The notes: generated from the letters alone by a model not told the origin. Shown: positions 17,290 to 40,420, numbered from the stretch's first letter. The stretch is 40,420 nucleotides of DNA from Raillietiella orientalis (GCA_036172245.1 JAYWIR010000005.1:6200001-6240420); one strand, 5' to 3'. Program-made: numbers and translations.

Positions 17290-19168
17290 GTTTACTTGGA
17301 TTGCATCCCCGGCTGTTGCTACAGGTTTGACTGGTTGGCTTGGGTGCTGAGGACGTACAGGCTGACTCTGGCCAACCTGCCGAGCTCCTGCCCGGGAACA
17401 CCGGAAGAGGCCGCCTACATACTTCTGTTGCTGCCCATGTTCACCCAGGCGTCCAGGCTCGAGGACTTCCTCGAGCTCATTCGTCGGAGGGCGGGCCTGT
17501 GCGTCAACAGGACGAAATCAACCGTTGTACCGGTTGGCTCTACGTGGGAGGGGCAGTCCGACTGGATCCGCCTGGGGATCCCCACGGGCAGGTGCTTTAA
17601 GTACCTTGGCGTTCCCTTGGGCGCCTTCTGTCCATCAGAAGCGTGGTCGGACTGCCTTCACAAGGCCGAGACTGCTCTGGGCCCGTTCCAAGGCGGCAGG
17701 TTCCTCCTGTCGGAACGGGCCTTCCTGTGGAACATTTTCGTTGCCCCTCTCCTCCGTCATCTCTTTTTTGTTGGTCCCGCTGCCTGCTCGGCTAAGCGTC
17801 GGGCGCAACGCCTGTTGCGAAACGCCTTGTGGGGACCGGCGAGGTCTAGGATACGCCTCAAGGACTTGGCGGCTCCTCGGCGGGATGCAGGATTGGGCAT
17901 CCTGACTCTGGAGCGGATCGGACTGCTAGTGCAGTTCCGCACTTTGCGCCCAGCTATGGACTACTCCCTGGTGTGCTCCAGCGCGGCTGCTGCTGCGGCG
18001 CTGCACGGGTGGCGACGGACTGCGTTCGTTGCACCTGCTCACGGGGTGCGCCCAGAGAGGATTCGGCTTCCCACTAAAGCAGCTCTCCTCGCTTCTGGGA
18101 AAGCATGCGTGGATCTCCTGCCGGCCGACGAACTTCAACGCCTGGAGGCAGGAAGCCTTATCGTCCTGGGCAGCGCAACAGGATGTGTCCCGTTTGGAAC
18201 TCCGTTGCGTGAACCTTTCCCCATACTGTCCAGTGGAAGAGGTGCTTGAAGACCAGGACCGGTGGACACGCCTAGCCGCTACGCCCCTCGCCGAAGCACT
18301 GTGTGCACTGATGGTGCGAGATGACAGTGACCTGCCGGCGAGGTGGGAGGTCGCTTGCGAAATCGCAGGCGAAACCCGACTGCTGGGCGGCTGGAGGACT
18401 TGCGAGCTGGCAGACGCTGCCACGCCTCGCTTTCGTGCCAAGGGACTTTTCCGGTGGAGCGAGCTCCTCGGGGTGCCCACCGAAGAACTTGTGGTCCCTT
18501 ATGCGTGCTTGGACGCGACTGTGTTCCCCCTTCGGTAAAAACAGGACGCTTTTCTGCTGATGCATTGGGGTTTGTACTGCAACCAGCGCGCGCACCTGGT
18601 TTCCGGGGGAGCTGCGTCCCCGAACTGCGGAGCGGTGGAATCGCTTCCGCATTTGCTATTTGAATGCGGTGCCCTCCAGGAGCTGTGGCGGCGGCTGTCT
18701 TCAGCGCTCCTGCATCCCGGACACACCGCAAAGGACTGGATGGGCCGCTTCTTCACGCGTGACGGTCTTTCTCTTGGAGCGGTCGTCGCAATCGTCTGCT
18801 GCGTCCGCGCCATTGTCAGGGCCCGCCAAGTACTACAGATGCGAACGATCCCAACATCGGTCCCCGACACTGCAGCCTGCAACCTGGAAATGGCTGCCGG
18901 GTGGCCACATCTTGGAGCGGAAGTGAGGACGGAGATCGGCGGCATTCACCGCCGGTTCTGAGAATAGGAACGCTTAAACTGCATACCCCTGTCCCCGCCC
19001 TCCTTCCCAGTTTATTTATTTATTTTCTCCTCCCCCCCCGTTCCGAACTCTCAGTGTGCCCTGCCTGCGTGCCGGGAACCCTCCTCCCCATCTTCTGTTC
19101 CCCTTACCTGGGAACACAGTTCCCAGAAGACATTATTAATAAACGTCCCGGCGCAACCGGGTAATAAA
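17290..19168 (+). mobile_element. L1/Tx1-type element C: 3' half of ORF2 + 3'UTR
   Basis: VNRTKS, FKYLGVPL, APRRDAGLG, CGAVESLPHLLFEC; terminus AATAAACGTCCCGGCGCAACCGGGTAATAAA. Confidence 0.92.
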
Positions 19169-20299
19169 CGACGACGCTGCACTCTTTAATTATCGCGCTA
19201 CCCTGCTCTTTCTTCTTCTGTTGGTTGGCGATATTTTTCTCCAACCTTCTCTCCTTTGATTTTTTGGCCGTTGCCACCTGCCACCCAGGCTCCTGGGCAA
19301 ATCCCTCGACTTTTTCGGCGTTGTTCGCCGGGGTCTCGGGTGCGGCCTGGGCCTTGGGCGCGGGTGGCACTGCCTTCGCGGCAGCTTTCGCCGCCAGCCT
19401 TTTCTGCAGCAGCCGGGCGCGTTTTTTAAGGTTTCTCTTGGAAACCACCCGCACTGCTGCTTTTGGGCACACCTCCCTCGTGTGACCCATTGTGCCGCAT
19501 ACTTGGCACTGCACGTTAAGAGACCTCTTCTTGAGGTGGCCCGACGTATTGCAGAAGCCGCAGTATTTCGGCTTATCCACATACCATAGGTCGACGGTTT
19601 CGCCACCGACCACCAGTTTGTGAGGAAGAGTGCAGCCCTCTCGAACGGTGACGCGTGCAGCCGTGAGGCCATGTTGCAGCCCCGTGTAGTCCTCAAAAGG
19701 ACTAACTTTCGACCACTGCGCGTGGACCGTTCCATATTCCTCCAGCGCGGCGCGAAACTGTTCCTTCCGCATCCGCGCGGTCACGCCTTACAGGTGGACC
19801 ACGAAGCTGCGGTCCACCGTAATGGGGAGGAGCCTGCGTGTCCCCATCACCACGGGGGTTTTTAGCAGTCGTTGGGCCAGCTCTTCTTGTTTACAGATGA
19901 CCTCATCGTACTGACCCCCGCTGCGGATGGTCATAGCGCTGAGCTCCTCCTCTTTAACATCGAGAGCGTCCATCCCCTTCGAAAAGGCGCGCGCACTCTC
20001 TGGAGAATATAAATTGCCTACCCTATAGAGTGATGAAAGGTTGTACCCCTCCTCCGTCTGCCGCGGCTGCAGGCGATGGCGCCGACACAACGGCGCACCA
20101 CTCACGCGCTGCAGCGGGGACCGATTCTGTGGGGGCGGATGCCCTCACCTCCATCGCCTCTGGGGGCGGCGTTGCCGCTGCCCTTTGGCCTTTCCTGGTG
20201 GTCGCGTCATGCATCTCTGCCTGATCTACCACCGAACCACAGGAAGGAGGGGGACTTCCTGGCACAAGGAGCACCGAGAAAACACGTCCGTCCTCGAGC
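19169..20299 (-). mobile_element. L1/Tx1-type element D: 5' end and frameshifted ORF1 with CCHC knuckles
   Basis: 5' motif CGGACGTGTTTT (20290 leftwards); LPHKLVVGGETVDLWYVDKPKYCGFCNTSGH..CQVCGTMGHTREVC; cut by the 3' end of C. Confidence 0.92.
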
Positions 20300-22407
20300 G
20301 CATAAAGCGTTCGACAGCGTCTACCAGAATCTGCTGCTGGAGCTTCTGAAACGCTTGGGCTTTCCGGTTTCATTGTAGGCCTATCTGCGCTCCAGCTGGC
20401 GCGACGCGCTGATCAATCTTTCTTTCAGCGGGCAGACCGTGCACGGCGTGCCGGTGCGGCGTGGGATACGGCAGGGAGACAGCCTGAGTCCCTTGCTCTT
20501 CAGTACCTACTTTGAGTTAGTACTGAGAGCGTACAGGGAAACTCTGGCGCACCTGCCGCACGACTGCGCCGGTACGCCTGCGGTTTCAGCGTACGCGGAC
20601 GACCTTCTGCTGCTGCTCCCTATGTTTACCCCGGCTTCGGCGGTAGAGGAGTTCTTCGACCTCCAGAATCGAGGAACCGGACTTACGGTGAACAGGGCGA
20701 AGTCGTCCGTAATGCCAGTTGGTGCGGCGTGGGCAGGCAGCAGGACTGGGTCCGTTTGGGGATCCCCACGGTGAGGTACTTCAAGTACCTTGGTGTGCCA
20801 TTGGGGAACTACTCCCCTGCGGAAGCGTGGTCCGGCTGCCTCCAGAAAGTAGAGATGGCGATCGGCCCGTTCCGAGGCGGTAGGTTTCTCCTGCCTTAAC
20901 AGGCCGCGGTTTGGTACACGTTCGCGGATCCTCTCCTCCGCTCCCTGCTTTTTGTTTGTCCCCCCACAGAGAGGATAAAAAAGCGGACGAAGGACCTCCT
21001 CCGTATCGCGCTTTGGGGCAACGGGAGGGCCCGAGTCCGCTTAAAGGACTTGTGCGCTCCGCGTCGGGACGGTGGTCTCGGTCTCCTGACATTGGAGCGG
21101 CTGGAGCTTCAGCTCCAGTTCCGAATGTTGACACTTGTTCCGGAGTTGTGGTGCACCTGTTGGTGCGTCCCTGCACGTCTCTTTCTCCAGCAAGCCACCG
21201 GCAAGACGGGACTCACGTCCTTTCTAGCACTCCGTCGCCGCGTTAACCGATGCGGATTCCAGCTACGGAGGGTGGCTGCGCTGAAAAGGAAAAATCAAGG
21301 ATGGATCACCTGTCGCCCCGCGAACGGTAGTGCCTGGTTGCAGGAAACCGTTCTCACGTGGGGAGAGTTTGGCATGCTACGCTTCCAACAGGAACGACGG
21401 TTCCTTTTTGGGGGTTACAGAAGTTGCACGCTTCTTGAGATCCTGGAGGATCCAAAGAAGAGAGCGTGGGCAGGAAGAACCCCCCTCGCTGCTGCGCTGG
21501 ACTCCCTCATGGAAGATCAGGACAGCGATGGTGCGGCGAAGTGGAAGGTTAACATGTTAATCTCCGGGAAGGAGAAGAAGATAGGAGAGTGAAAGACGGG
21601 TCAGCTGACTGACGCTGCCACCCCGAGTGCGCCTCCACATGGACTTCTGCGCTGGAACGCGCTGCTCGACGTTCCCATTGAACGTCTGAAGTGGCCCCCG
21701 GTACTAATGAACACCTCCGCCCTCCCCTTAAAATGACAGGAGTCGGCTCTCCTGTTGCAGCACTGGGGACTCCCCTGCAACGCCCGCCGACACCACTGGT
21801 CCTGGGGAGCGGTGGATCCCAATTGTGTTAGGTGTGGGGAACGGGAATCCCTCCCCCACCTGCTTGTGGATTGTGTTGCCCTTCGTCCCTTTGGTTCCGC
21901 TTTGCCGCGGCCATCGGAATCCCCTGCGGCAACCTCAGGGACGCTCTGAAAGCCCTCTTCGTTGCCGACGCCCTTCGGCCAGCGGCCTCGTTAGCAGCTC
22001 TGTGCTGCCTACGCGGGATCGTCGCCGCCCGGAGCAAGGCTACGGGAGGACCACACGACCAGGGTGCCATCCAGCCAGCCTCCTAATTCTTGAGGAGAGC
22101 ATCGCGATGGCCCCACCTGGATCCAAGCATCAGCAAGGGCTTGCCGACATCCTAAAAAGGATGCAAAGGCCCCAGCAGCAACTGTGATCCCTTCCCGTAC
22201 CCTCCCAGTTTTTCTTTTCTTTTTGTTTTGTTTTGTTTTTTTTTCCTTCTTCCCCCAGCTGCCGTGGTGGACCGTACCGGTCTGCGAACCAGTGACCCGG
22301 CAGGCTCTGTGTTTCTTCGTGCGTGGCTGGAGCAATGGTCCAGCCACTGCACGTCTTTTTTAAAGTTTATTGTTTCAGTAAACGCCCCGGCGAAATCCGG
22401 GTGAAAA
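20300..22407 (+). mobile_element. L1/Tx1-type element B ('GAAAT-loop' subfamily): RT from HKAFDSV to the 3' end
   Basis: HKAFDSV, RGIRQGDSLSPLLF, AYADD, KYLGVP, CVRCGERESLPHLLVDC; end AGTAAACGCCCCGGCGAAATCCGGGTGAAAA. Confidence 0.95.
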
Positions 22408-24140
22408 TCGAACGCCTTGCGGAGATCGACCGCGACCGCCAAGGCACCCGGCGCTTCCTCATTCCGATTGCAGCGACGCTTAGCCTCGGCAGCCGCAGAT
22501 GCGGTTACCTGGCTGTCGTGCGCCACGCACCGCTGCAGCTCGAGCCACGTGCGCGCGAAGAACAGGTTCGCCTCCATGGACCGACCGGTAACAGCGTAGG
22601 ACTGCTCCGGACTTACCACGGATCCAGCGATCTTCTCGATCTCCTGGACTTTCTTCTTGGACTGCGGTCTTCACGTGGATCTTCTGCAGAAGCGACACGT
22701 GGAAATCACGCAGAGTGTCGGGCGTATCTCGCCTGTTGTAGTCGTCGCACAGCCCGTTGAAGAACCAGCAGGTTTTGCGGATCATACGGCGACAGGCGAG
22801 CCCAGTTGCTAATTTTGGGAAAGTGGCAATGAACCTCCCTCCACCTGTTCAGGCGGGACCCTAGGATGAGGAAGTGAGTCGCGCACCGCTTGTCCTTCTT
22901 CCATGGGTCCCGAATCTTCGGCAGGGATTTGCAGAGGAAGAAGAGATTCACCCACCTGCTCTTGCTCCTCCATGGGGTTCACCATCTGCACGGTGTCGGG
23001 GAATGAGTGATTCTCATCCTTTTCTACCACGCTGCCGGCTTCCTCCTCGGATGTTGGTTCATCCCTCTCCTTGTTGGTCTGGATGTGCCTCCAGGGATTC
23101 TGGAACTTGGGTCCCGTCTCCTTGGGTGTGCTCTCCGCGGAGGACGCACTTCACGCATGCGGATCTGCCTCACCTGTTTCCAGAGCCTTCCACGCGGCCT
23201 GCCTTCCTAAGGATTTTCGGGAGTTCTTCTCACGGCCTCGCATCTCAGCCGTGAGTTCTCCCACCGTTTCCTGGAATGCGGCTTCCTCGATCGCGTCGAG
23301 GGCGTCGCGCGGTTTCCCCTCTGTTTCCCCAGAGGGTTCGGCATCGTGCGTCGCGGCTTTGGCTAACGTGAGGTGGAAGAAAGCTCTCCCGGTGGCGTCA
23401 TCGACTGCCTCCACACTCTCCAAAGTCACCGAAGACGCGCCGAGTTTTACGCGGCACGGTTTTTCGCGTGGCGTTTTTTTCTACGCGTTCCGTTTGGGAC
23501 TCACCGGTCTTCTTGGCAGCTGTATCGTCTGCCAGCCTACACAATTACCAGCGTCGTCAAGTGTTTTCTCAACTGACGTTTACTAGAACGGTTTATGGAC
23601 TGGCTTCTTTGCTCAAACAGGCAAAGGCTGTAGCCTTTGCCTGTTTGAAGGCATTCTCTACTCCCGCCGATTTCCCCTTTGCCTTTTTGGCATCAGGTAA
23701 GATAGGGATGTCTCTCCTCGGGCACACTTAACCAATGCGGCCCTTATTTCCGCATAAGTGGCATTCGATGTTGGGGCACCGGATTTCGAAGTGCCATGTT
23801 GTATCGCAATGGCCAAAGTACTTATGCGTTCCAACGTAACAAACATCGACTTCTTCGCCGATGTTTAGTTTGTGGGGAAGCCACCATTCTCTGGTAATGT
23901 GACACGGGCAGCGGCCAACCCACTAAATAGCCTTTCGTACGTCCGGAAGACATCAACTTTGGCCCAATACGCGTGCACTTTACCTTGTTTTGCCAAATCC
24001 TCATGGACTCCAGTTTTCCTTATTCCGAGTGTCACGCCTGTGAGGTAGACTACGGCGAAGCGGTCCTCCGTCACAGGGAAGATCCTACGGTCTTCCACCG
24101 TATTGGGGTGTTCAGCAGGCGCTGGGCAATTCGACAATTT
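22408..24140 (-). mobile_element. L1/Tx1-type element G: ORF1, APE start, internal deletion, RT up to KAFD
   Basis: IFPVTEDRFAVVYLTGV (ORF1); CWFFNGL..LLQKIH (APE); VSPEQSYAVTGRS..VDLRKAFD (RT). Confidence 0.9.
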
Positions 24141-25544
24141 TCTGCGACTGTTGGATCTCAGTGGCCAATTGCATCTCCCAAATATTACTGTGAAGAATGT
24201 CTTGAAGAAGTTATGGAGAAGACGTGCTAACCTCCGGGAATTTTCATCCTTAGCTTACCTTATGGTTCTGAGATGCTGTGTCTTATCCATGGCTAACGCT
24301 TCTTGAAAAAATGCGGTGAATTTATTCTTGTATGTCTTTTGAGTATCAATCATGTTTGACAATCCACGTTTCAAGCGTCCCGCTTTGCAAACCTTAATGT
24401 GCAAGATGAATGCTAGCATAAATTGCATCTCCCAAAACAGCGAAGTGTCCACGATTAAAATGGTGGACATGTGATATCTGGAAATCCAGATCGCCAACTC
24501 TTTCTCCCACAACCTGTGTTCCTGCAACAAGCTGAAGGCCATTGAAGTGACCGCCTGCAGCCGACTTACCAGAATCTTCTCCTTTAAGCAAACAACTCAT
24601 ACTGTTCTGCCTTAACGTTAGAGATTTCCGAGATTTTCTTCAGCAAGCCGCTGTAAGCAACGTTCAGATCCACCTCTACCTAAAGCACTCGAGAGAGATT
24701 CCCCGCGCATGCCAAGCGCTTCTCTTGCAACTCATGGAGGTTACTCTCGTACTCTGCCACGACCACACTTCTGAAAAACAACGACAGAAACTTGCAACCG
24801 CCACCTTCTAGCCTCCAGATATTCACGTTGCCTCCACCAGTTTGTCCTCGATCATGCGTAGACATCGCTGCCTCCAGTCCTTCTCGCTCGGTGTGGCGCG
24901 GGCATCCTCTGTCGTCTTTCTGTGGTTTGTTCCCTGCCCCAAAGGGGCTTCCATCCTTTATTGCAAACCCCTGGAACATCCTCATTTACGAGTGAGAGCA
25001 ACCGCCGCAACGCTCCTTCGTCTCACATCCGGCGGCAGTCCACATGCCGATCTGACTTCCTGCTTTCTCACCGCCCTTCTTGATGGCATGTGCAGCAACT
25101 TCGAGCTTCTCTGCAGTCCATCGATGTCCGCTTGCCTCTTTCTGTGCTGCGCAGACGAGCTGCGGATGGTTCTCTTTAACGAGCACAGTAAAGGGAAATC
25201 GGCATGGGCTTGGATTCTCATGGAAGTCTCTGTTCTCCCTTGCTAAAAATCAGTCGCTAGTTGTACGAGCAGAGATCACTGTCACCCACCTCCAATGCCA
25301 TCACAACCATGAGGCCTGAGGGCGGGATCTAGGCGATGAACGCGCACTCCGGTGGGCTTGTAAGCAAGGCGACAAGTCTTTGCACTTAAGGATTTGTGCT
25401 TCCGTCTTGGGAGCGGCAAAAAACGGGGCCAAAAAACGGCCTAGGGAGAGGAAGCGACACGCTCGGAAAGGCCAACAATCGTGACCTCGCCATTGCAACA
25501 AAACTCGAAACTGGGTGCAAAAAAACGTGGTTTCGGCTATCGGC

Positions 25545-27028
25545 CCGTTCCTGGAAGGCAAGTTTCACTTGCAGGAACGAGTAGCGGTGTAGAATGCGTT
25601 CCCGGGCCCCTTAAATCGCCCCCTGCTTTTTGTTTGCGCGTACCCCATGAGATGAAAAAGAGAACAAAGAACCTCCTGCGCATCGTTCTGTGGGGTGGCG
25701 GGAGGCCTGGTGTGCTTCTGGAGGATTTGTGAGCTCCCCGTCGGGACGGAGGTTTTAGCGTCCTGACGCAAGAGCGCGTGGCAAAACAGCTGCGATGGCG
25801 CACCCTCGCCATCGCAGCAAAAATGTGGAGCACCCCTTGGTGCGTTCCGGCCCACCTCATTGCCAGACGTGTGTCCGGGAGTAATGGACTAGCGTCTCTT
25901 CTGTGCCCCAGCCGGAAAATAAGAAGATGCGGCCTTCTCCGTGACCCGTGACCACCCTGGCAAACGAGAACGGGTGGATGGCCTGCAGCCGCGCCAACTC
26001 CAGCGCATGGATGGAAGAAACAGTTGGCTCGTGGGCTAAGTTAAACCAGCCTAGTGAAGAATCCTGCAACTGCCTTTGTCCCGGCATCTACATCGACTGT
26101 GCGCTGCGGAACATGACCGGGTGTCCCTCCAGAAGCACTTGGAAGGAGACGACCCTACTGACCACGGCGCTGCCCTTCCTGAGAATGGCGCTTCATAACG
26201 GCCGGAAACCGAGGAGGCAAGTTATCTGCCGGATAGCGGGCAAGGAGAAGGGGTTAAGTGGGTAGACCATGAAGGAACTGTCTGACGCCGCGACTCCAAG
26301 CGTTCTCCCGCTCGGAATCCAGAGATGGGCGAGCTGCTTGACATCCTGCTAGATGACCTAAAGTGGTCTTTGTGATTTAGATGCGCAACCACCCTCCCCC
26401 TCAAGTGGCAGGAAACGGCTCTACTATTGTTGCACTGGGGATTTCCCTGCAACGCGCGCCGACACCACTGGACGTTGGGAACGTGGGAGAGAACTGTGCA
26501 GTGTGTCCCTCTGGACCCTGTGGGAACATTTTGCTAGAAACCTTCGGATACCGTTCGGCAGTACCCCCAAAGACGTTGTGAGACTCCACTTCGTGCTAAA
26601 CGCCCTGCAACCAGCATCAACCCTGGCAGCGCTCTGCTGCCTCCGAGGGATTGTGACCGCCTGGAGCGCAGCCAAAGGAGGAAGCAGCGACAGGGATCCC
26701 ATCGTACACGCTGGTAGCTACCTGCGAATCGCGATTGGCTGGTCCCATCTGGGAGCCATGACGAGGGAACTCGAGGGCATCCTGGAAAAGATAGTCTTTT
26801 CCACTAGCGGGCTGTGATCCCTTCCCGGCTCAATAAATAGTTTCTTTCTGTTTGTTTCATTTATTTAACTTTTTGTTTTACCCCCTATCCCCTCCGCTGC
26901 CGAGGAGAGTCAAGCCGGTCTGTGAACCGGCTTCCTGGCACGTCCCATGAACTATTGGCCGTAGCGGGACCTAGTACCGCAAATGTACAGTGTTTATTAA
27001 TGAACGCCCCGGCGTGACTAGGTGAGAA
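25545..27028 (+). mobile_element. Decayed L1/Tx1-type 3' fragment
   Basis: GPFLEGKFHLQER, APRRDGG, GWMACSRAN, ALCCLRGIV, WSHLG; end AATGAACGCCCCGGCGTGACTAGGTGAGAA. Confidence 0.88.
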
Positions 27029-27051
27029 CTTCCCCGTGTCCTTCTAGGGAG

Positions 27052-30000
27052 CGGACGTGGTTTGGCATCGCTCCGCGCTCTAGCTAGTGGGAAGCATTTT
27101 GGTGGTTTTGTCTGGTGTGTGGGAGCGCCGAGGTCCCATGGCAGAAATGACTGAGGACACCGCAATGGAATTTGGAGGAGGAGAGGCGACTTGCTCTCCT
27201 CCACCCATGAAAGTCAGAGCATCCGCCCCTACGGAATCTGGGGCACTTTTTCCATCGGAATCGGGGGCAACCGCCCCTTCGCGATCTTTGCCAGAGGCGA
27301 GGAGTTGGAGTGCCATCGTTGCTGCATCATCCCCGGCTGCAGTAGCGGAGCAGACTGCCTACAAGGACAGCGGCTACAAACCGTCGCTGATTTATAAGGT
27401 AGGCAGTGTGTTCGACGAGAAAATTGCACGCTCCTTTGAAATGGAGCTGCAAAGACTGAATGTGAGGCAGGAAGTCCTCGAGGGCCTATCCGACCTTAGT
27501 GGGGGACAGCGAGTTGAGCTGACATGCAGAGAGGCAACTCTGGCGCAGGGCCTGCTGAACACCCCCATTACGGTGGACGGCTGCAGGATCTTCCCTGTGA
27601 CGGAGGACTGCTCCGTCGTGGTCCACCTCACGGGCGTAACATTCCGAATGAACAAAGCCAGCGTCCATGAGGAGTTCTCAAAACATAGTAGTATTGAAGC
27701 GCGCGTATTGGGCCAAACACAATGTCTTCCGAGCGTACGGAAGGCTATTCAGTGGGATGGCCGCTGTTCGTGTCAAAATACCACAGAATGGTGGGCTTCC
27801 CCACAAACTAAACATCGGCGACAAAAAAGTCGATGTTTGGTACGTAGGAAAGCACAAGTACTGTGGCCATTGTGATGCCACAGGGCACTTCAAAAATCGG
27901 TGCCCTAACATCGAATGCTAATTATGCGGAAATAAGGGCCACATTTGTTAAGTGTGCCCGAGGAGAGACATCTCGGTCTCACCTGCTGCCAAAAGGGGAA
28001 AGGGGAAACCGGCGGGAGAAGCGAATGCTTTGAAACAGGCAAAGGCTGTAAAAAGCAAGAAGCCAGTCCATAAACCGTTCTAGTAAACGACAGTTGAGAA
28101 AACACTTGACGACGCTGGTAATTGTGTAGGCTGGCAGACGATACAGCTGCCAAGAAGACCGGTGAGTCCCGAACGAAACGCGTAGAAATAAACGCCAAGC
28201 GAAAAACCGTGCCGCAAAATACTCGGCGTGTTCGGTGACTTTAGAGTTTGTGGAGTTATTCGATGCCGCCACCGGGAGAGCTTTCTCCCACCTCGCGTTT
28301 GCCAAAGCCGCGACGGAAGAAGGCAAACCTTCTGGAGAAAAAGTGAGGGAACCGCGCGACGCGCTCGAGGCTATCGTGGAGTCCACCTTCCAGCAGGCGG
28401 TGCGAGAACTCGCGGTCAAACTACATGGCCGTGAAAAAAACTCTCGATAGGCCTTGCGAAGGCCAAAGGAGAATCACGTTTCGTAGGCTCATGAGGCCGA
28501 TCTGGATGCCCAAAGTGCTTCTTCCTCAGCGGAGGCGCCTCCTAGGAAGACGGGGCGCAAGTATCAGAATCCCAAGAGGGGCAATCGGAGCATCAAGAAG
28601 GGGGATAAATCGGCACCCAAGGGGTAAGCCTGCAGCGGGAACCAAGGGTGAGAATCTCTCACTCCCCAACACCGTGCAGCTGGCGATCTCATGGAGGAGG
28701 AAGTGCAGGTGGGTTAAACTCCCCTTTCTCCGCATGGCCTGATGAACTGGCAGCGAATGATTTCTCCCATTCGGAGAAACAGAAGAAACGCCTAGCAAGC
28801 TCTCGACTGTCGGATTCCGATCCAGAGTCCGACAGAATGAGCACACAGCGCGACACCCGCTCGAAGCTGCGAAATCGCCTCCTGAAGACTCGCAAGCACG
28901 TGGTTGCTAACGAGGAACTGTTGCCGGGGAGCAAAGGGAAGGCTATGGACCGAACAAGTGAGCTGCTGGCAACAAACATTCCCGATTCGAAATTAGATGA
29001 CCAGTATTCGAGACCTGCTGCTCTGTCTCGGGTCCACTAGCCCGACGGGGCGTGAAAATCATTTTCACCTTCCCAGTTTTAATGCGGGAAGTCGCCTCTC
29101 TTCGTCGATTCAGCGTAGCATGCTGGAAGTTCAACGGGCTGCGCAGGGACGGAAAGAGGGGCAGCGTGTCGGACACTGTGCCATTTCGGCGTGGCGATCC
29201 TGCAGGAGATGCATTACATCTCCGATGCGGAGGTTGCCGAAATTGAACAGCGCGCGGGTGGCAGCCTGTACTGTCGAGAAGTCTCTGCACAATCGTGCGG
29301 AGTCGGGTTTCTCCTACATAGTAGGATGGGGGGAGCGGTGCGCAGCGTTCGATTCGACCAGGAGGGGCGAATGGGCCAAGTTGTACTCAAAATGGTCAGA
29401 TTCAATCGACCACGTCGTGACCAACGTCAACGCGCCTAGCGGCTTTCATAGGCGTGCCGAAAGAATCGAGTTCTTCGACGTGCTGGGGAGTCAATGGCTC
29501 AGGAACTCCAGAGACAGAGTGGCACAGCTCGTCGCAGGGGACTTTAGCGACCCACTGCTTTCCAACGAGACGAGGTCCCTGGCGGAACGCTCGCGGGTGG
29601 AAGAGGCATGCGCGTCGGTGCACGCGCGTAACTTGAAAACAGCGAACATGGACTGAAAAGGAGTGTGGATCACGTCTATATCGATGAACATTTGCTCTCA
29701 CTAGTGTGGAGAAGAGACAGGTTGCCGTCCACGTAATCGAAAAATGACGGGCTGGAATTCGAGGTACTTCTTCCGGGCAAGGGCCCTACGAACAATGTTT
29801 GGAGGATGTCGGCGGATTATATAATTCATCCGGAGGCGGCGGAACTTCTTCGCCAGTTTCTCCGCAGCCTTGCCATCCAACAAGTCGCAGACTGGGACGA
29901 CGTTCAAAGATCGATTCTCGAGTTTTGCGACCGGTTCCCCCTGCACCTCCTACCTTGTAGCTTCGGGGAAGGCGTAGTCATTTGCAGAGAATTTCTGCAG

Positions 30001-30789
30001 GTGCGCACCTTCTCTAGACGTGCGGAAGTCCGGCAACTCGCAGAGTACAAGGCGAGGGCCGAGCGCCAGGTCTGGCAGTCTGGAGCGGCTATTCTGCTAG
30101 ACGACCAAGGCCGGGGATGCACGGCTCCGGCAGAAGTACGGCGAACACTGAGGCGTCACTTCTCCTTGCTCTACGCGAAGTACCCGACGTAGAGAGTCCT
30201 CACGGAACTACTTCTACCGCGGGGTGCACACAGCATCAGCGAGGATGAACGCGCTCGTCTCGATGACACCTCCATGTTGGAGGAAGTTTCTTCCGCCATC
30301 GCAGGACTCAAGAGACGGAAGACTCCAGGTGAGGACGGGCTTCCCGCGGAGTTCTATCAGAGCTTCGCGGTGGAACTCGTGCCCCTAGTGCTCAGCCTCT
30401 CGACGCTGATGACGGTGACGGGCGATGTCCCTTTTTCCTTCCTCTCAGCGCGGGTGCGTCTCCTTCCGAAAGTAGATCTGCGAACTCAACAGCTGCCGTG
30501 CGATCAAGTTAGTGAATACGGACGTCAAGTTGTTTTCGAAGCTGTGAGTCACATGCCTAGAGAAAGTCGCGGAGTACGTGGTATGCCCGTAGCAGACTTT
30601 CGCTGTGCTGGGTAGGTCCATGGATGCGAACCTCCTTTTGGCGCGCACCTGGTGACAGCTTCAACAGCGCCTTGCGGCGGACAGCCGAACAGCGCCAACA
30701 CCTTCTACCAAATGCGAGCGCCAGTGCGGACAAGCGGGAGAATGACCGGAAGCCCTGGCAGTCGCAGTACATTTGCATAAAGCATTTGA
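27052..30789 (+). mobile_element. L1/Tx1-type element H: 5'UTR, ORF1, APE, RT up to KAFD (pseudogenised)
   Basis: CGGACGTGGTTT; ORF1 from ~27138 (YKPSLIYKVG, CGHCDATGHFKNRC); ORF2 from TAATG at 29080 (CWKFNG, LQEMH, VAGDF, KTPGEDGLPAEFY, LHKAFD). Confidence 0.93.
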
Positions 30790-32148
30790 TTTTCACCCGG
30801 ATTTCGTCATAGCGTTTATTTAAAAATAAACTTTAACAAAGACGTCATTAGTAGGAGCATTGCTCCAGCCACGCAAGAAGAAACACAGAGTCTTCCGGAA
30901 CACCGGTTGTAAGACCGGTACGGCCCACCACAGCCAAAGAAGGGAAAGGGGAAGAGCAAAAAAAAATAAACAAAAAAAAAATAAAGAGTGGGAGGGTACG
31001 AGAAGGCATTAATGTTGCTGCTGGGCCGTTGCATCCTTCCCAGAATGCCGGCAATCTCTTCTTGTGTTCGCGGATCCAGGTGAGGCCATCGCGACGCCCT
31101 CCTTAAAAATTGGGGGTCGCCATGGATGGCACTCTGGTCGCGTGGACCTCCCATAGCCTTGCTCCAGGCGGCGACGATCCCGCGAAGGCAGCAGAAGGCT
31201 GCTATCGAGGCCGCTGTCCGAAGGGCGTCAAAAACGAAGATAGTTTTGAATGAGTTCCTGGGGTTGCCGCAGAAGATTCCGATTGCCGCGGCAAAGCGGA
31301 ACCAAAGAGGCCGAAGGGCAACACAAACCACAAGTTGATGGGGGAGGGACTCCCGTTCCCCACACCTTACACATTTGGGGTCCACCGCTCCCCAGGACCA
31401 GTGGTGTCGGCGGGAGTTGCAGGGGAGTCCCTCAGTGCTGCAGCAGAAGAGCCGACTCCTGCCATTTCAAGGGGAGGGTGCAAGTGTTCATGAGCACCTG
31501 GGGCTACTTCTGATGTTCAATAAGAACGTCGAGCAGCGCACTACAGCGCAAAATTCCATTGGGAGCGTACTCGGGATCGCAGCGTCTGTTACCTGGCCCG
31601 TCTTCCTCTCTTCATGCTTCTTCTCCTTACCGGAGGTTATCATTTCAACCTCCCACTTCGCCGCAACATCGCTGTACAGATCTTCCATCGTAGTTGGCAA
31701 CGCAGCAGCAAGGGGGGTTCTTCCTGCCCACGCTCTCTTCTTCGGATCCTCCAGGATCTCTCGGCGCGTGCAACTTTTGTAGCACCCAAACAGGAACCCT
31801 CGTTCCTGTTAAGCGCGATGCATGCCGCACTGTGCCTACGTGCGAACGGTTTCCTACAACCTGGCACTACCGTTAGCGGGGCGACAGGTGATCCATCCTT
31901 GATTTTTCCGAACCAAGGCAGCCAAGCTCCGCAGCTGGAGCTCACATCGGTTGATGCGGGAGCGATGGAGTGATAGGAAGGAAATAAGTCCCGTATTTTC
32001 GGGGGCTTCCTTGACAAGGAGACGTGTAGGAACGCTCCAGCAGGTGCACCACAACTCCGGCACAACGAACAACATCCGGTACTGGGGCTGAAGATCCAGC
32101 CGCTCCAATGTCAGGGGGCCGAGACCGCTGTCCCGACGCGGAGCGCAC
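30790..32148 (-). mobile_element. L1/Tx1-type element I ('GAAAT-loop' subfamily), 3' part
   Basis: Collinear with B (LCAPRRDSGLG, KNQGWITCRPANG, CVRCGERESLPH); end AATAAACGCTATGACGAAATCCGGGTGAAAA. Confidence 0.92.
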
Positions 32149-32175
32149 AACGCCCCGGCAAAATCCGGGTAAAAA
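32149..32175 (+). mobile_element. 27-nt 3'-terminal stub of a 'GAAAT-loop' element
   Basis: AACGCCCCGGCAAAATCCGGGTAAAAA; 2 differences from the end of B. Confidence 0.85.
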
Positions 32176-32372
32176 TCGAACGCCTTATGGAGATCGACCG
32201 CGATCGCTAGAGCCCCCTTTCCCGCTCGGGAGTTCTTTTCCTGTCCCACTGGCGGCCCCAAAGTGGGGTGGCAAATTTTCCCGTTCCCTTCCTTCTCACT
32301 CCGCTGCACGTGCAACCATGTGCTCGCGAAAACGAGGTTGCCCTCCATACTTCGCTCGGGAACAACGTAAGA
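32176..32372 (-). mobile_element. RT fragment ending at KAFD
   Basis: SYVVPERSMEGNLVFASTW...ALAIAVDLHKAFD. Confidence 0.9.
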
Positions 32373-32552
32373 CCAAGAATCCAAAGAGGCGCATCCTGAG
32401 GAAGAAGGAGGGGGACGCCCCGGAGCCGAGGGGGAAGCCGGCAGCGTGGGAACGGAGGAAGGGATTTTCCCACCCTCCGCTACCGAGAAGCTGGCCACCT
32501 CCATGAAGGAGGGGGAGCAGGTAGGTAATTGCCTCCCCCTGCCACCGCTGGG
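32373..32552 (+). mobile_element. ORF1 C-terminal fragment
   Basis: KNPKR..., GGAAGCCGGCAGCGTGG and SMKEGEQVG resemble the ORF1 tails of F and G. Confidence 0.7.
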
Positions 32553-34807
32553 CGGACGTGTTTTTCCTTCGCTCCCGAGAGAGTCGTAGGAAGGCTTTAT
32601 CTTAGTGGTTTTATAGTGTGGAACATCGTTGGTGTCCAATGGCAACCTTACCTGAGGACACCACGATGGAGGTAGGTGTGGGGGAGACTTGTCCACCCCC
32701 ACAGCCTACTGGAGGAGGCCGAACCAAAGACTCCTGTCCCCTGCCCTCCATATTTTTATTTTTATTTTTCATAGTAGTGTATTTGTTGTCCCCTCCCTCC
32801 CGTTCCGGACTTTTGGCATACCGACCTGCGTGTCGGGGATCCCACCCCCTTCGTCTCTTGTTTTTCCTTTGTCCAAGAACTCTGTTCCCGGATAGTTTTC
32901 AATAAACGCCCAGGCGCACCCGTGTGATAAACAGCCTACTGGATAAGGGGGATTCGCCCCGGAGTCATCCCCGGCCTCGCCGAGGACATGGAGAGCCATG
33001 GTGGCCGCGTCCAACGCGGAAGCCATGGCGGAGATGGCTGCCTACCGGGCAGCTGGGTACAAGCCCAGCTTAGTATACCAGGTAGGCAATCTTTTTGATG
33101 GGCGAACTGCACGCGCCTTTACGAAGGCGCTGCAGAACGCCAACGTACTAGAAAAGGATGTCGGCGGCCTATCTGTGCTTAACGGGGGTCAGCGCGTCGA
33201 GGTTGTCTGTAAGGACATCACCTTGGCGCAAAGTCTGATCACAACCCCGCTGATCATGGATGGGCGCAAGATCCTGCAAGTCACGATGGACCGCTCCGTA
33301 GTGGTCCATCTGACTGCCATCACCAGCCGCATGACGCGGTCTGCGGTTGGTGAAGAACTCAAGAAGTTCCGTGAGGTACACGCGCTGTGGCCAAAGGCCA
33401 CTATCTTGGAGGGCCACAATAGCCTTTTCGGGGGGAAGGCAGCCGCACGTGTAACCGTGAACGACGGTGGAGCGCTACCTCACAAGCTGGAGGTCTGCCA
33501 AGAGCCGGTAGACCTCTGGTACGTGGGGAAACCCCGCTAATGTGCGTACTGCAACACAGTAGGACACCTCAGCAAAAGGTGCCCGAATATACGGTGCCAC
33601 CTGTGCGGGGAGCGGGACCACGTTCGGCGCGTGTGCACCAAGCGCCCCACCTTGGTGCCCCCTGCCGCCAAAAAGGCGCAGGCCAAAACAGCGAAAAAGG
33701 TCGCAAGACCGACTAAAGGAAGTGGCCATCGCAAACTGCCAGCACCTCAACCCCGGCGAAGAAGTCGCAGGAAGTGGCCCTCGCAAGCTCTGGAGGGGGA
33801 AGAGGAATGGCAGCTCGTAAAGGCCCGCAAGGAGAAGAAGGTTCCCATCGTGGAACCCGCGAAAACGGAGAAAAAGAAGAGCGGTAATCCGAAAAAACCC
33901 GGTCCGCGATCTAAAACCCTCCGTGAGTGCTCAGTGGCACCAGAACGCATTGCCGTTCCTGAGGTTGCCACCCGGAGCGACGAGCCTCCCCCCGCAGTTT
34001 CCGCCGCGACCGAGATTCGCGACGGCGAACCCTCTGTTTGCTCAGAGGGTCAGCCGCGCGACGCGCAAGCCCACAGCGAGGACGCCGCTTTCGCGCAGGC
34101 GGCGGAGGAGCTCGCGGCCACGCTGGCCGAGCGTGAAAACCCTTCGCGCAAGGCTGTGCGAAGGCCGGCTCCGGCGAAGAAGGCCCCCGCAGGTGAGTGT
34201 GCACCGGGGGCCGCAAGCACATCCTCCTCCTCGGAATCACCCCCCAGAAAGTCGGGACGCAAGTCCCAGAAGCCCAGGAGGCACCTCCCCTCCACCAGCG
34301 AGGAGGAGAAAACGGAAGCCGTCGACAGCGTGGGAACCCCGGAGGGGGACTCCCATGCTCGGAAGCCGTCGATCAGGCCAGCCCCATGGAAAAGGGTGAG
34401 CAGGGGGATGAAGTCCTCCCTGCAGTCGCCGACCCTGAACAGCCCGCCCCCATGGAGGAGGGCCAACAGGTAGGCGCGACCCCACCTGAGGGTGAACCGA
34501 CCGACGCAAAGACACCAATGAAGGAGGGGGACCAGGTGCCCTCGGTACCCCCTCTTCCTCCACCTGGCGTCCCGCCCCAGCAGGTGGCGGACGCCGCATC
34601 GCCATCTTCCCAGGATTAGCACCTGGGCTCGCCAGTCGCTGTAGGATCCGGGTAGCCTGCTGGAACGTCAACGGGCTGCGCGACGACGGCAACGGGCGAG
34701 ATACAGCCGACACCCTGCGTGAGCTCGACCTGGATCTGCTTCAGGAGATCCACGTGATCTCCGCGGCAGACGTCCAGGAGACCGTGTCGATCGCGGGGGG
34801 TCGGTTG
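32553..34807 (+). mobile_element. L1/Tx1-type element F: 5'UTR, ORF1 (disrupted), start of APE
   Basis: CGGACGTGTTTTT; YKPSLVYQVG; CAYCNTVGHLSKRC / CHLCGERDHVRRVC; ORF1 stop 34617-34619; CWNVNGL, LLQEIH; cut at IAGGRL. Confidence 0.93.
32714..32930 (+). mobile_element. 217-bp 3'UTR-only insertion of subfamily A with a 13-bp TSD
   Basis: ACAGCCTACTGGA at 32701-32713 and 32931-32943; the insert matches the reverse complement of ~34808-35030. Confidence 0.95.
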
Positions 34808-37697
34808 TTTATCACCCGGGTGCGCCGGGGCGTTTATTGAAAACTATCCGGGAACAGAGTTCTTGGACAAAGGAAAAACAAGAGACGAAGGGGGTGGGAA
34901 CCCTGACACGCAGGTCGGTATGCCAAAAGTCCGGAACGGGAAGGAGGCGACCACAAATACACTACTATAAAAAATAAAAAGAAAAACATGGAGGGCAGGG
35001 GACAGGGGTCTTTGGTTTCTGCCGTTCCTTCCTTTCAGAACCGGCGATGGATAACGGCGATCTCTCTCCTCACGCTCTCTGGTAGGTGGGCTTGCTAGGC
35101 AGCCGACGACATGCTCGCGCTGGCTAATCCGGTGGGCAGACGAAGGATGGCCAGCTTCTCCAACTCTCGGTGGGCCTTGTCGATGGCGCGGGTGCAACAG
35201 ACCGTTGCAACGACAGCACCCGAAGACAGGCCGCCTGGCGTGAAGAAGCGGCGCATCAAGTCCCTCGCGGCGTCCCCCTGGTGCAGGAGAGCTGAGGCCA
35301 GCCTCCGCCACAGTCCTAGGAGGGCACCGCAGTCCAGGAGCAGGTACGGGAGCGTTTCCACTTCCCAGCACCGCTTACAGCTTGGGGAACAACTCTCCTG
35401 GAAACACGGTTCGTCCGCTGGTTGGAGTGAAAACCCCAATGCACCAGCATGATGACGTCCTGCTTCCACAAAAGGGGGAACACAGAAGTGTTCAAACAGA
35501 AGGGAGGGACCACAAGTTCTTCGGGGGCACACTCAAGTGTTCACTCCACCGAAGGAGTCCCTTCGGAACGTGGCGAGGCGTGGCGGCGTCCGCCAGCTCG
35601 CAAGTCCTCCAGCCGCCAATAGGTAGTGTTGTTCCTGCGATGGTGCAGGCGACCTCCCATCTCGCCGGTTCGCAGCTGTCATCTCTTTCCCTGAGGGCTG
35701 ACAGCGCGTCGGCGAGGGGCGTGACGGCCAGACGAGTCCACTTCTCCTGGCTGTTGCACATCTCATCCACTGTGCAGTACGGAGAGAGGTGAACGCAACG
35801 GATTTCCAGAAGAGAAACATCCTGGTGCTTTGCCCAGCCATGCAACGGTTCCTGCCGCCAGGCTTCAAAGTTCGTTGGGCGGCAGGAGATCCATTCCTGG
35901 ACTCCCAGGAGCCGGTAGAGGGGTTTCAAGGGGAAACCGAAACTTGTCGTGGGGTGCTCCGTGTGCGGACGCAGCGACAGAAGTCCGTCGCTGCCGGTGC
36001 AGCGCCGCAGAAGCAGGCACGCGGTAGCGCACCACGGAGTGGACCAAAGGTTGGCGCACACGGCCAACATCCGAAGGTGCACCTGCAGCTCGATTCTCTC
36101 CAGCGTCAGGATGCCTAAGCCGGCATCCCGACGCGGAGCCGCCAAGTCTTCGAGGCGTATCCTGGACCTCGCAGGTCCCCACAGAGCGTTCCTCAACAGG
36201 CTGTGCGCCTGGAGCTTGGCCGAGTAGGGGGGCGGGCAAACAAAAAGCAGGGGGCGCAAGAGAGGGGCAACGAAGGTGTTCCATATCGTGGCCCGCTCCG
36301 GCAGGACGAACCTGCCATGGTGGAACGGGCTCAGGGCATTCGTAGCCTTCCGAAGGCAGTACGACCACACTTCCACTGGGCTGATGTTTGCTAGCGGAAC
36401 ACCCAGATATTGCACGGACGAAGCGGTCGGGATCCCCAGGCGGATCCATTCGGACTGCCCCTCCCACGCCGCACCAATGGGTACGACCACGCTCTTGCTC
36501 CGGTTTACGCTCATGCCCGCTCCCCGGCGAATCAGCTCGAAGAAATCCTTGAGACTGGACACCAGGGTGGTCATGGGTAAGAGGAGAAGCAGGTCGTCAG
36601 CATAGGCCGCCACGGACGGCGTTCCTGGACAAAAGCTCGGCAGGTTGGCCAGCGTCAGCCTGTACGCCCTCAGCACCAACTCAAAGAAGATGCTGAAGAG
36701 CAACGGGCTTAAGCTGTCTCCCTGCCTGATACCCCGCCGTATGGGAACACCGTACACGTGGCGCCCGCTGAAAGAGATACACCATAACGCGTGGTGCCAG
36801 CAGGAGCGCAAGTAGGCGAGGAGGTGCGTCGGGAGTCCAGTGCGTCCCAGAAGCTCCAGAAGGAGGTCCTGGCTTACGCTGTCGAACGCTTTATGCAGAT
36901 CGACTGAGATCGCTAGGGCCCCCTTCTCCACCTGGCAGTCCTGTTCCTGCCCGGCTGACGCCCCCAAAGCGGGGCTGCCAATCGTTCCCTCTTCCATTTC
37001 TTCACTACTCTGCACATGAAACCATGTGCTCGCGAAGAAGAGGTTGGCCTCCATACTTCGCCCGGGAACAGCGTAAGTCTGCTCCGGGCTAATTATGGAA
37101 TTGGCCACCTGCCCCAGACGCGAAGCCCACAGTCCGACGATCAGCTTGGCGTGTGTATTCACAATTGTGATCTGACGCCAGTTGCTGAGTTTCCTGAGGT
37201 CTCCTCCTTTCGGAAGGAGCCTCACACTGGCTGACCGAAACGAGGCAGGTACATCGACTTCATCTCGGATCAGCCTTGTCAACTGAAGCACCAGGGGTGC
37301 CAACTCTGCCGCGCAGCATTGAGAAAACTCCGCGGGCAGACCGTCCTCTCCTGGTGCTTTTTGCCTCTTGAACCTTTTGATACCGGCGAGAATTTCGCCG
37401 GTGGTAAAAGGCTCGTCGAGGCTTTCCTTCTCCTCCTCCCCTATTGCCGGGACACCGTCCGGCAGCAAGCGCCGAGAGGCATCTTGTTCCGGAGGCGCCC
37501 TGGCGTAAAGGGAGGAATAATAACGCCGCACAAGGTGCCGTATTCTAGCCGGAGCCGAGTGCTCCCGGTCCTGGTCGTCCAGCAAGCTGGCCGACCCGGA
37601 TTGCCAAACTTGACGTTCGGCCCCGGCTCGGTACTCTGCCAGGCGACGGACATTGGGGGTCCTCGCGTAACGACGGGCATACAAGTACGCTCTTTCG
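34808..37697 (-). mobile_element. L1/Tx1-type element A: ORF2 (no APE) + 3'UTR
   Basis: Best-preserved RT in the window; end AATAAACGCCCCGGCGCACCCGGGTGATAAA. Confidence 0.95.
35035..37697 (-). pseudogene. Non-LTR reverse transcriptase (ORF2), 5'-truncated, frameshifted near 35.5 kb
   Basis: Track ORF 35492-37849: KAPGEDGLP, NWRQITIVN, EQTYAVPGRS, DLHKAFDSV, GIRQGDSLSPLLF, AYADD, YLGVPL. Zinc finger CKRCWEVETLPYLLLDC lies in a shifted frame. The track's first ~50 aa are antisense 5'UTR of E. Confidence 0.93.
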
Positions 37698-37792
37698 TTA
37701 CGTAAGGACGTGTTTTTCCTCCGCTCCCGAGTGAGTCGACAGGAAGCGGTTTTTTCTGTGTGTTTTTTTGTGTGGAACATCGTTGGTGTCCG

Positions 37793-39571
37793 ATGGCAGC
37801 GATGCCTGAGGACACCACGATGGAGGTAGGTGTAGGGGAGGCTTGCCATCCCCCACAGCCTACAGAATCAGGGGCGTCCGCCCCGGAATCGCCTTTGCCG
37901 CTCAAGGCGAGGAGCTGGAGCGCCATGGTGGCCGCGCCGAGCGCGGAAACCATGGCCGAGATGGCAGCCTACCGGGCAGCTGGGTAAAAGCCCAGTCTGG
38001 TATACCAGGTAAGCAATCTCTTCGACGGGCGAACTGCACGCGCTTTTTCGAAGGCGCTGCAGAACGCCAACGTATAAGAGAAGGATCTTGACGGTCTATC
38101 CGTGCTGAGCGGGGGTCAGCGCGTCGAGGTTCTCTGCTAGGACATCACCTTGGCGCAAATCTTGATTACTACCCTGCTGAACGTGGAAGGACGCAAGATC
38201 CTGCCAGTCACGATGGACCGCTCCGTAGTGGTCCATCTGACTGGCATCACCAGCCGCATGACGCGGTCTGCGGTTGGTGATCAACTGCGAAAATACGGAG
38301 AAGTTCACGCGCTATGGCCAAAGGCCACAATCTTCGATGGCTACGATAGCCTTTTCGGAGGCCAGGCTGCAGCGCGTGTCACTGTCAATGAGGGTGCTGG
38401 GTTGCCCCACAAACTGGAGATCGCGAAGGAATCCGTCGACCTCTGGTACGTGGAAAAACCCCGCTATTGGTATGCTGGCAAGCCACGGTATTGCGGCTAC
38501 TGCGATGCGGTCGGACACATCCGTAAGAGGTGCCCGAACATCGTATGCTACTTGTGCGGGGAGAAGGGACACGTCCGTCGCGTGTGCCCTAAACGCCCCA
38601 CCCCAATTTCCTCGGCCGCCAAAAAGGCGCAAGCGAAAAGCGCGGGGAAACAAAAATTAGAAAACCGTGAAACTGGCCGAGAAAAGCTGCCAATAACCCA
38701 AGCTCCAAGCGCGGCATCGGAGAAAAATCTTCCCGAAACCGCAGAGGGTGAACAGGGCTGGCAGCTAGTCAAAGCCAAAAAAGAAAAAAAGGACAAGCAT
38801 GTCCCGAAGAAAGGAGAGAAGGCGGCGGCCGGAACAAAAGCTCAATCCGTGTCGCGCGTAAAAACTCTCCGAGAATGCACGGTCACGCAGGAACGCATTG
38901 ACGTTCCCGCCGACACCACCGGAGGCGATACGGCTTCGATCGATTTTCCCGCCGCGACGAATGCGCGCGAAAACCCACCCCCCGTTTGCGAAGAGGGTCA
39001 GCCGGACGACAAAATCGCCGAAACCAAGGACGCAGCCTTCGAGAAGGCCGCCGAGGAGCTTGCGGCAACGCTTGCCGAACGCGAGAACCCCTCGCGAAAA
39101 AGGTTGCGTAGGCCGGCAGCGGCTAAAGTGGCCCCCGCAGGTGAGTCGGACCGGGAGGCCGGAAGTGCATCCTTCTCTGCGGAAGCACCACCAAGGAAAG
39201 CGGGGCGAAAATCCCAGAAACCCCGAAGGTGCATTGCGCCTCCGCGCGAGGGGGATCCAATGGTGGAGGAACCAGTGGATGGCAGCGTGGGAGCCCAAGT
39301 CGGACATCACCCACGTGCGGAAGCCGACGAGGAGGCGACTCCAATGGAGGAGGGTAACCAGGGGTCAGCAATGCCCTCTGAAACCGCCGAACCTGAACCA
39401 CCCGCACCAATGGATGTGGGCCAACAGGTACGAACAACACCCCCTTCGCACGGGCAGCCGGAGACGTCGGCACGAAAGAAGGATGGGGAGTTGGTGGGCA
39501 AGACGCCAACCCCGTCCAGCGACCCGCCCCAAAAGGTGGCGGGAGCTCCACCGCCAAGTTCCCAGGAATAA
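37793..39571 (+). pseudogene. ORF1 gag-like protein with two CCHC knuckles; three in-frame stops in the N-terminal part
   Basis: CGYCDAVGHIRKRC and CYLCGEKGHVRRVC; track ORFs 37760-37987 and 38150-39571 are in the same frame. Confidence 0.9.
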
Positions 39572-40420
39572 CACCTGGACTCGCCTGTCGCCGTCGGATC
39601 CGCGCGGCCAGTTGGAATGTTAACGGGCTGCGCGACGACGGAAACAGACGAGATACAGCCGCCACCTTGCGAGATTTCGACCTGGTACTTTTGCAGGAGA
39701 TCCACGTGATCACCGCAAAAGACGCCCAGGAGATCGAAACGATTGCGGGAGGGCGGTTGTACTGGCGATGCGGCGCCCGCAACACTTGTGGGGTCGCGTT
39801 CTTCCTAAAGCCAGCCATTAACGCGGCCGTGAAGGGCGTGCGCTTTGGGGACGACGGACGGATCGGCCAACTGATTCTCAGATGGTCCGATTCGATCGAC
39901 CTCATCGTCACCAATGTGTACGCTCCTAGCGGTAAACAGGGATACCAGCAGCGCAACGCGTTACTGGAAACCTTGAAGCGCGAATGGCTGGTGGACGCGG
40001 ACGTGCGAAAGGCGCATCTGATAGCAGGGGATTTCAACGTCCGTCTGCTCTCAGATCAGCCCGGAGCACAGGGTAACGCGATCAACAAGTTGTGCGCCGC
40101 CATGCGCGCGCGCAACCTGTTGACAGAAATAAGCGGGATGGTCAGCAGCGTGGACCACGTCTTCCTCGACGAAGACCTGTGCACACGGGTCGGAATACGA
40201 GGGACACTTGGATCGACGCTGTCGGACCATTCCCGGTTAGTTTTCGAGATGCGCCCGCGCGACAAGGGACCGCCATCCAGGGATTGGCGTATGCCAGGGG
40301 ACTGGACGCGCCTGTCAGGAGCGAAAGAACATCTTCGCGAATTCCTGCGAGGCGTCAGCCTCCAGAGTCTCGCGGATTGGGACCTATTTAAGGACTCGGT
40401 CCGGGAGTTCTGCGAACAGT
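39571..40420 (+). CDS. ORF2 APE endonuclease domain, open to the window edge, no AUG start
   Basis: SWNVNGL, LLQEIH, GVAFF, NVYAP, IAGDFN, VDHVF, SDH; no stop codon in frame. Confidence 0.92.

Follow-up and report, generated by a model that had tools for sequence, protein, structure and literature searches.

Three LINE 3' ends abut one nucleotide of the antisense reverse transcriptase motif KAFD in a LINE nest of Raillietiella orientalis

In a stretch of 40,420 nucleotides (nt) from Raillietiella orientalis (GCA_036172245.1, JAYWIR010000005.1:6200001-6240420), long interspersed nuclear elements (LINEs) of an L1-like family form a nest from ~12.6 kb to the end of the stretch, and several of their 3' ends adjoin LINE sequence of the opposite orientation. 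The locus raises the question whether one LINE lineage homes to the catalytic motif K-A-F-D (KAFD) in the reverse transcriptase (RT) of its relatives, as a first-pass annotation of the sequence had proposed. The evidence comes from this single window, the whole stretch named above with its 40-kb LINE nest, and the codon numbering of RT parts follows P0001, the open 791-codon RT frame of the minus-strand LINE P (34807..37705).

The 3' ends of the family are of two types. Their 3' untranslated region (UTR) carries a short hairpin, CCCGG…CCGGG, which is followed by a GTGATAAAC-like sequence in 'b' ends or by GTGAAAA in 'a3' ends; the 3' end of the a3 subfamily reads …CCCGGCGAAATCCGGGTGAAAA, that is, a short hairpin plus GAAAA. 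A search for AAATCCGGGTRAAAA with up to two mismatches revealed three occurrences (22393-22407(+), 30790-30804(-) and 32161-32175(+)), at a chance expectation of 0.12, and none of 100 shuffles reached three. At each of them the a3 tail adjoins the identical base of an antisense KAFD, directly behind …TTCGA, at 22407/8, 30789/90 and 32175/6. The consensus of the three joints in the sense of the target is …AA(G/A)GC(G/A)TT(C/T)GA followed immediately by TTTT(C/T)ACCCGGATTT, with no filler bases. The complement of the a3 tail directly continues the sense strand …TTCGA-3', which therefore either served as a primer or was precisely ligated.

At the first joint the tail AAATCCGGGTGAAAA of D (20301..22407(+)), an a3-type LINE that begins at KAFD (residue 325), meets L1b (22408..22640(-)), an RT fragment of residues 251-329 that ends at KAFD with …AAGGCGTTCGA. 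At the second, G (27053..30789(+)) comprises the 5' terminus GGACGTGG, open reading frame (ORF) 1, the apurinic-like endonuclease (APE) and the N-terminal half of the RT; it ends at KAFD with …AAAGCATTTGA at 30789 and adjoins the tail of H (30790..32150(-)), an a3-type LINE that starts in the thumb region (~residue 573). At the third, J (32176..32553(-)), an RT fragment up to KAFD with clear homology over residues 264-329, adjoins I (32151..32175(+)), which consists of 25 nt of a3 tail. Over 32149-32175, 25 of 27 nt are identical to the tail of D, and left of 32149/51 lies the 5'-truncated end of H, the same minus-strand copy whose tail forms the joint at 30790.

A six-frame search for K[AS]FD yielded five motifs, at 20304(+), 22407(-), 30779(+), 32175(-) and 36881(-). 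RT sequence is present on both flanks only at 36881, the intact KAFD of P (36881-36892), and the remaining four lie at junctions. At 15498, a candidate for a sixth motif has the sequence KAFE outside any RT-motif-A context and probably belongs to another motif. The seven other 3' ends of the family were located at 19169(+), 27029(+), 32932(+), ~5308(+), 34807(-), 12652(-) and 3479(-); KAFD placement was found for 3/3 a3 tails versus 0/7 other tails. Motif search and joint readout thus agreed with the first-pass annotation, which had placed three 3' ends at one nucleotide of an oppositely oriented RT and the seven others off KAFD. Its count of four junction motifs among five, with one intact, was also recovered, except that 20304 marks the 5' boundary of D and is not a 3' junction. 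The joint which it described at 32175 exists as well, but the insert there is just 25-27 nt of tail (32149/51-32175).

Sequence comparison places the RT of the family among L1-like RTs. P0001 matches PF00078 (RVT_1) with E 2.1e-22; among solved structures its best relative is human LINE-1 ORF2p (E 8e-38), and R2 follows with 1.4e-14. In the protein database the best match shares 60% identity, and those below it, at 23-31%, include L1-like RTs of plants and amphibians, of which some carry zf-RVT. The features of the L1 superfamily (APE-type) were found: an N-terminal APE and an RT in ORF2 (APE: PF03372, E 5.7e-13 on 39397-40419(+)), an ORF1 with CCHC knuckles (zf-CCHC, PF00098, E 4.3e-6), several 5'-truncated copies, a conserved 3' hairpin before the tail and a target site duplication (TSD). 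The last was seen at K (32714..32932(+)), a 219-nt 5'-truncated b-type insertion that is 94% identical to the 3' end of P and is flanked by a perfect TSD, AGCCTACTGGA (32703-32713 and 32933-32943), of 11 bp, an example of the ordinary TSDs that the family makes. In the related run X1, one contig jumps from 32709 to 32981 and omits 32710-32980, including K; together with the likeness of K to P this indicates that the b-type was probably active recently. The tails end in the hairpin plus GAAAA or GATAAAC, and a poly(A) run was present in 0 of 10 3' ends read. The 5' terminus of the family is GGACGTG(T/G)TT, at 27053(+), 32554(+), 37706(+) and 20289(-). All four recognised full-length 5' termini have GCTCC ~17-22 nt inward; three of them meet an opposite-strand LINE fragment directly or via 8-11 nt of filler, whereas the remaining one follows the tail of F (25521..27029(+)) at a distance of 23 nt.

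We then compared the divergence on the two sides of the joints. The inserts D and H differ from thumb to tail at 234 of 1354 positions (17.3%), evenly over the codon positions of the coding part (38/216, 33/217 and 45/217; p 0.32), and have no stop codon or disabling mutation in common. The targets L1b and G differ over the 233 nt before KAFD at 87 positions (37.3%), with an excess at third positions (29/78, 18/78 and 40/77 for codon positions 1, 2 and 3; chi2 13.8, p 0.001), which indicates that they diverged under selection. The divergence doubles precisely at the joint (87/233 versus 234/1355; Fisher p 4.6e-11), and since the contrast persists in transversions alone (18.9% on the target side versus 8.1% on the insert side, p 3e-6), CpG decay is not its cause. 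An H5 comparison of four pieces (L1b, G, J and P; last 196 nt before the joint) gave 38.8% for L1b-G, 37.8% for L1b-J, 38.3% for L1b-P, 46.9% for G-J, 42.8% for G-P and 22.4% for J-P. L1b forms a lineage separate from G, J and P, and J is b-like (22% from P versus 38-47% from L1b and G).

Judged from these divergences, each of the three joints lies in a target lineage of its own, and these lineages separated while they were still active; D and H have decayed from almost the same source. Stops in H fall at Q or W codons of D, which points to ordinary decay. Divergent targets combined with a flat divergence of the inserts imply that a single duplicated composite does not explain the joints; for the pair at 22407 and 30790, the split-alignment divergence ruled it out as the sole explanation. 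The earlier statement that the targets differ strongly was borne out, with 38-47% measured among the targets and 17% without codon-position bias between the inserts, which speaks against copies of one chimera.

The fourth junction motif belongs to a 5' junction. D starts at CATAAAGCGTTCGAC, 14 nt ahead of the nick position of the other three joints, and the junction at 20301 consists of 8-11 nt of filler (20290..20300) followed by the exact 5' terminus of the minus-strand L2 (19170..20289(-)). L2 is a LINE 5' part with the terminus GGACGTGTTTT at 20289 and an ORF1 that has a CCHC knuckle; it breaks off at 19169/70 (~ORF1 residue 249), where it is interrupted by the tail of B (17343..19169(+)). 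The geometry at 20301 fits the 5' side of an antisense KAFD insertion with a 14-bp TSD. The sequence CATAAAGCGTTCGA (20301..20314(+)), which occupies the 14 nt before the nick, would then be the right-hand TSD copy from the antisense insertion of L2, which would belong to the a3 type. If 5'-truncation points were random, we estimate that ~0.5% of them would lie no more than 15 nt from KAFD. Snap-back of the RNA 3' end on its own RNA, with RNase H, was also considered; it accounts for the start of D, but not for the differing target lineages.

We regard it as fairly probable that the a3 LINE integrates by site-specific target-primed reverse transcription (TPRT) at the KAFD of other LINEs. The sense strand of the target RT gene would end with …AA(G/A)GCGTTCGA-3' (codons K, A and F plus the initial two bases of D), and this 3' end would prime a complementary DNA (cDNA) that starts at the final base of the a3 RNA, so that the insert would come to lie antisense to the target. 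A cut of the second strand ~14 nt upstream would create the 14-bp duplication, and the flank downstream of an a3 end would read TCGAACGC… (antisense KAFD). The 3'-OH would presumably be supplied by the a3 element's own APE endonuclease nicking resident copies; in a speculative variant, read-through antisense-RT RNA pairs with the target. Pairing via a 6-7-nt repeat, AACGCC, which occurs in the tail and in antisense KAFD, was rejected because it would skip the tail, contrary to the joints.

The left half of the nest could be read as L1b struck at KAFD by the element of D, the element of D struck at KAFD by L2, and L2 struck in ORF1 by B. The right half agrees with a simple series of antisense insertions, in which G was struck at KAFD by the element of H, the H-element side (J) was interrupted by R' (32554..34806(+)), R' was struck at APE residue ~122 by P, and R (37706..40420(+)) interrupted P in the linker between APE and RT (~residue 59 of P0001). 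The joint between R' and P has a 2-nt microhomology. All missing target halves of the right side would fall past the window end. Since its 791-codon frame is open, P may be younger than the a3 burst, and its KAFD may be unoccupied for this reason.

More tentatively, the lineage could be seen as a hyperparasite that homes to the K-A-F-D codons beside the catalytic aspartate, the best-conserved part of LINE RT genes, disables rival or sibling copies and makes new antisense platforms, a view that we hold to be plausible rather than probable. Such a target could not mutate away without killing its host element, and read-through antisense-RT RNA might guide the next event. The attributes 'safe haven' and 'inactivates competitors', which the first-pass annotation had attached to the motif, are speculation.

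Several observations weigh against site-specific TPRT at KAFD. The events number only three to four, all within one 40-kb LINE nest, and no junction in the window has both target halves or a second TSD copy. The remainders expected left of B were sought within the window and not found, and the same holds for the downstream part of L2 with its TSD. Of the site-specific antisense insertion originally proposed, one-base, a3-only joints in three lineages were thus recovered, while a target with both halves and a TSD was not seen in the window. The window does not contain the a3 endonuclease. Relatives of the junctions were not detected in 68 metagenome pattern loci (0/68 with RT similarity), in a pattern search of genome contigs (56 stretches matched, none confirmed) or in protein searches with the junction ORF at near and shorter lengths (no matches); in run X1 (0.06 of sampled words; 269 of 417 contigs less than 90% alike), the three joints were in none of the matches listed.

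The third joint is a further difficulty, as an insert of 25 nt requires a 735-bp deletion or a two-ended event. Here the 5' ends of H and I meet with a 2-nt overlap, which leaves H between inverted tail repeats of 27 nt. Either J and H were one element with a tiny a3 insertion and the 735-bp deletion, which is doubtful because J is b-like and H a3-like, or two KAFD-primed cDNAs met. A plain deletion in one minus-strand LINE was rejected for 32175/6: the frame is open, but the two sides are b-like and a3-like and a 25-nt inverted tail lies between them.

The relation of G to L1a (22623..24127(-)), an ORF1 with the start of the APE that belongs to the lineage of G, also counts against site-specific TPRT. 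The two have 3 of the 6 in-frame stops of G in common, these three in ORF1 (27949 TAA, inside the second CCHC knuckle, and 28081 and 28084, TAG TAA, with their counterparts within 22930-24127(-)), and they differ by 18.8%, flat over the codon positions and similar to D versus H. Common stops and flat divergence indicate that G and L1a derive from an ORF1-defective ancestor, via DNA duplication or trans-mobilisation, and they hint that locus 1 and locus 2 resemble each other partly through duplication at the DNA level. An alternative genetic code was rejected as a reason for these stops, because P0001 is open over 791 codons in the standard code. L1a and L1b are fused in frame at 22600-22660(-), from APE …VQEIEKIAG to RT SVVSPEQ…, with ~20 nt of APE/RT similarity at the junction of the two lineages. 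The L1a-L1b breakpoint lies ~10 nt from the corresponding cut of R' by the tail of P (34806). Finally, b-type tails adjoin antisense LINE sequence elsewhere, at 34806/7 (APE) and 19169/70 (ORF1), so the pattern is in part common to the whole nest, and a rival is some broader process by which tails become joined to the ends of LINE sense strands. Five of the six tails that touch LINE sequence do so in antisense (19169/70, 22407/8, 30789/90, 32175/6 and 34806/7), and only K (32932/3) in sense; with n=6 tails, LINE-in-LINE insertion may have an orientation bias.

Such a process would build chimeric cDNAs: LINE sense-strand ends, left by paused or broken second strands, nicks or breaks, would be captured as primers by tail-bound LINE ribonucleoproteins, with KAFD as a recurrent stop or break site and the alternating chain built during retrotransposition or repair, with no endonuclease recognising resident copies. 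We judge this unlikely, although much of the nest is in keeping with it. All 5' parts lack their own 3' half and are capped by an inverted tail (G by H, L1b by D, J by I, R' by P and L2 by B), and the antisense orientation of five in six LINE-adjoining tails agrees with capture. The acceptor points are exact termini (tails or GGACGTG 5' ends) and the donor points internal, and H and I meet 5' to 5' with their 2-nt overlap like cDNAs primed from facing ends. What capture leaves unexplained is the use of one base in three lineages, its restriction to a3 tails and the restart of D exactly 14 nt upstream. Moreover, K demonstrates ordinary TPRT with a TSD in this family, and the missing halves of the right side are equally expected from a nest that runs past the window.

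Alternatively, one ancestral chimera of a3 tail and KAFD could have been copied as DNA by inverted segmental duplication, its H5 side being later replaced by recombination or gene conversion through exchange with different lineages of LINEs within the 40 conserved nt that precede KAFD. Sequence 21050-22637 aligns through the joint with the reverse of 30560-32150, and 22930-24127 with the reverse of 27543-28734, both at ~79%. The stops at 27949, 28081 and 28084 shared by G and L1a agree with this origin, as does the ORF1 divergence, which matches the 17.3% of the inserts and is likewise flat over codon positions; in the last ~35 nt, J is nearer to L1b than to P (2 versus 5 differences, read from the alignment). 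This account nevertheless requires at least two exchanges, each ending within ~40 imperfectly matching nt of the joint, and even in the 37 nt at the joint L1b and G are ~35% different, compared with ~18% for the insert side. It leaves the 20301 junction unexplained, and D and H have no disabling mutation in common; we consider it quite improbable. A chance coincidence or an assembly artefact is very improbable indeed. Nothing specific favours it beyond the highly repetitive nature of the region, while the 17-47% divergence of the copies identifies the joints as old sequence rather than near-identical repeats joined by mistake. The motif occurs far more often than in the shuffles, and two further hits on one base would have, by our own estimate, a probability of ~1e-8 (uniform over a ~5.8-kb element and two strands).

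Site-specific LINEs occupy several multicopy targets: R1 inserts into 28S rDNA, TRAS and SART into telomeric repeats and Tx1L into the Tx1D transposon. Like these R1/Tx1-clade elements, the present family is an APE LINE, and the three a3 tails of the window would likewise occupy a single base in a multicopy target. Initiation would be precise, without extra bases, and the TSD short and fixed (14 bp as reconstructed here), as in site-specific APE LINEs. Unlike in those elements, the target would be the coding sequence of the RT active site of LINEs, across lineages and always in antisense. Inverted LINE segments are also known from L1 twin priming, in which a 5' segment is inverted, the 3' segment behind it keeps the forward orientation and the tail lies beside the TSD. 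The H-I join resembles two cDNAs meeting in this way, with a 2-nt microhomology; in contrast to twin priming, however, the tail itself adjoins the inverted internal site and the parts come from different lineages. L1-type twin priming was rejected for this wrong geometry.

Target-specific APE LINEs are known, and transposons are among LINE targets according to the available part of PMC4640811. In a full-text literature search, no LINE was described in the retrieved text portions as targeting a LINE RT motif. Zepp elements nest into their own copies, and Zepp/ZeppL, L1-type LINEs of green algae, form tandem arrays mostly of 3' ends (available part of PMC8226300). Neither a fixed nucleotide of the RT motif nor an antisense rule is mentioned for Zepp in that part of the report. 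The tails described here also differ from those of Zepp in having no poly(A) run, but a hairpin plus GAAAA or GATAAAC. The same-orientation 3'-end arrays of Zepp were not matched in the window: LINE-in-LINE nesting is present, with 5/6 tails in antisense and the a3 joints fixed.

If homing to KAFD is true, it would add a new class of target that is mobile, self-renewing and unable to escape by mutation, as well as a natural example of retrotransposons of one lineage inactivating those of others. Homing would also account for dense LINE nests of alternating orientation and offer an APE endonuclease with 11-nt-scale specificity that could be tested in vitro. Site-specific LINEs serve as models for the safe landing of retroelements and are being adapted as gene-insertion tools.

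The remaining elements complete the map of the nest. B is a 5'-truncated b-type LINE with RT residues 398-785 of P0001 and the 3'UTR; its tail, …GGGTAATAAAC, ends at 19169 and adjoins the antisense ORF1 of L2. Non-LINE DNA (24128..25520) lies between L1a and F, which is itself a 5'-truncated LINE with its tail 23 nt upstream of the 5' terminus of G. R' is a LINE 5' part from its terminus GGACGTGTTTTT to the APE and contains K. P is a b-type LINE, whose tail adjoins the antisense APE of R'. R begins with a LINE 5' terminus, contains ORF1 with two CCHC knuckles and leaves the window within its APE.

In the left part of the window, positions 1-3700 are GC-rich (56-63%), and each strand carries numerous long open frames; a scan of five frames in this region yielded no Pfam match and no similarity to P0001. 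LINE-like 3' hairpin ends occur also at ~3479(-) and ~5308(+). An inverted repeat of ~220 bp with 81.5% identity (4211-4429 and 5694-5915) lies in the GC-poorer section of this left part.

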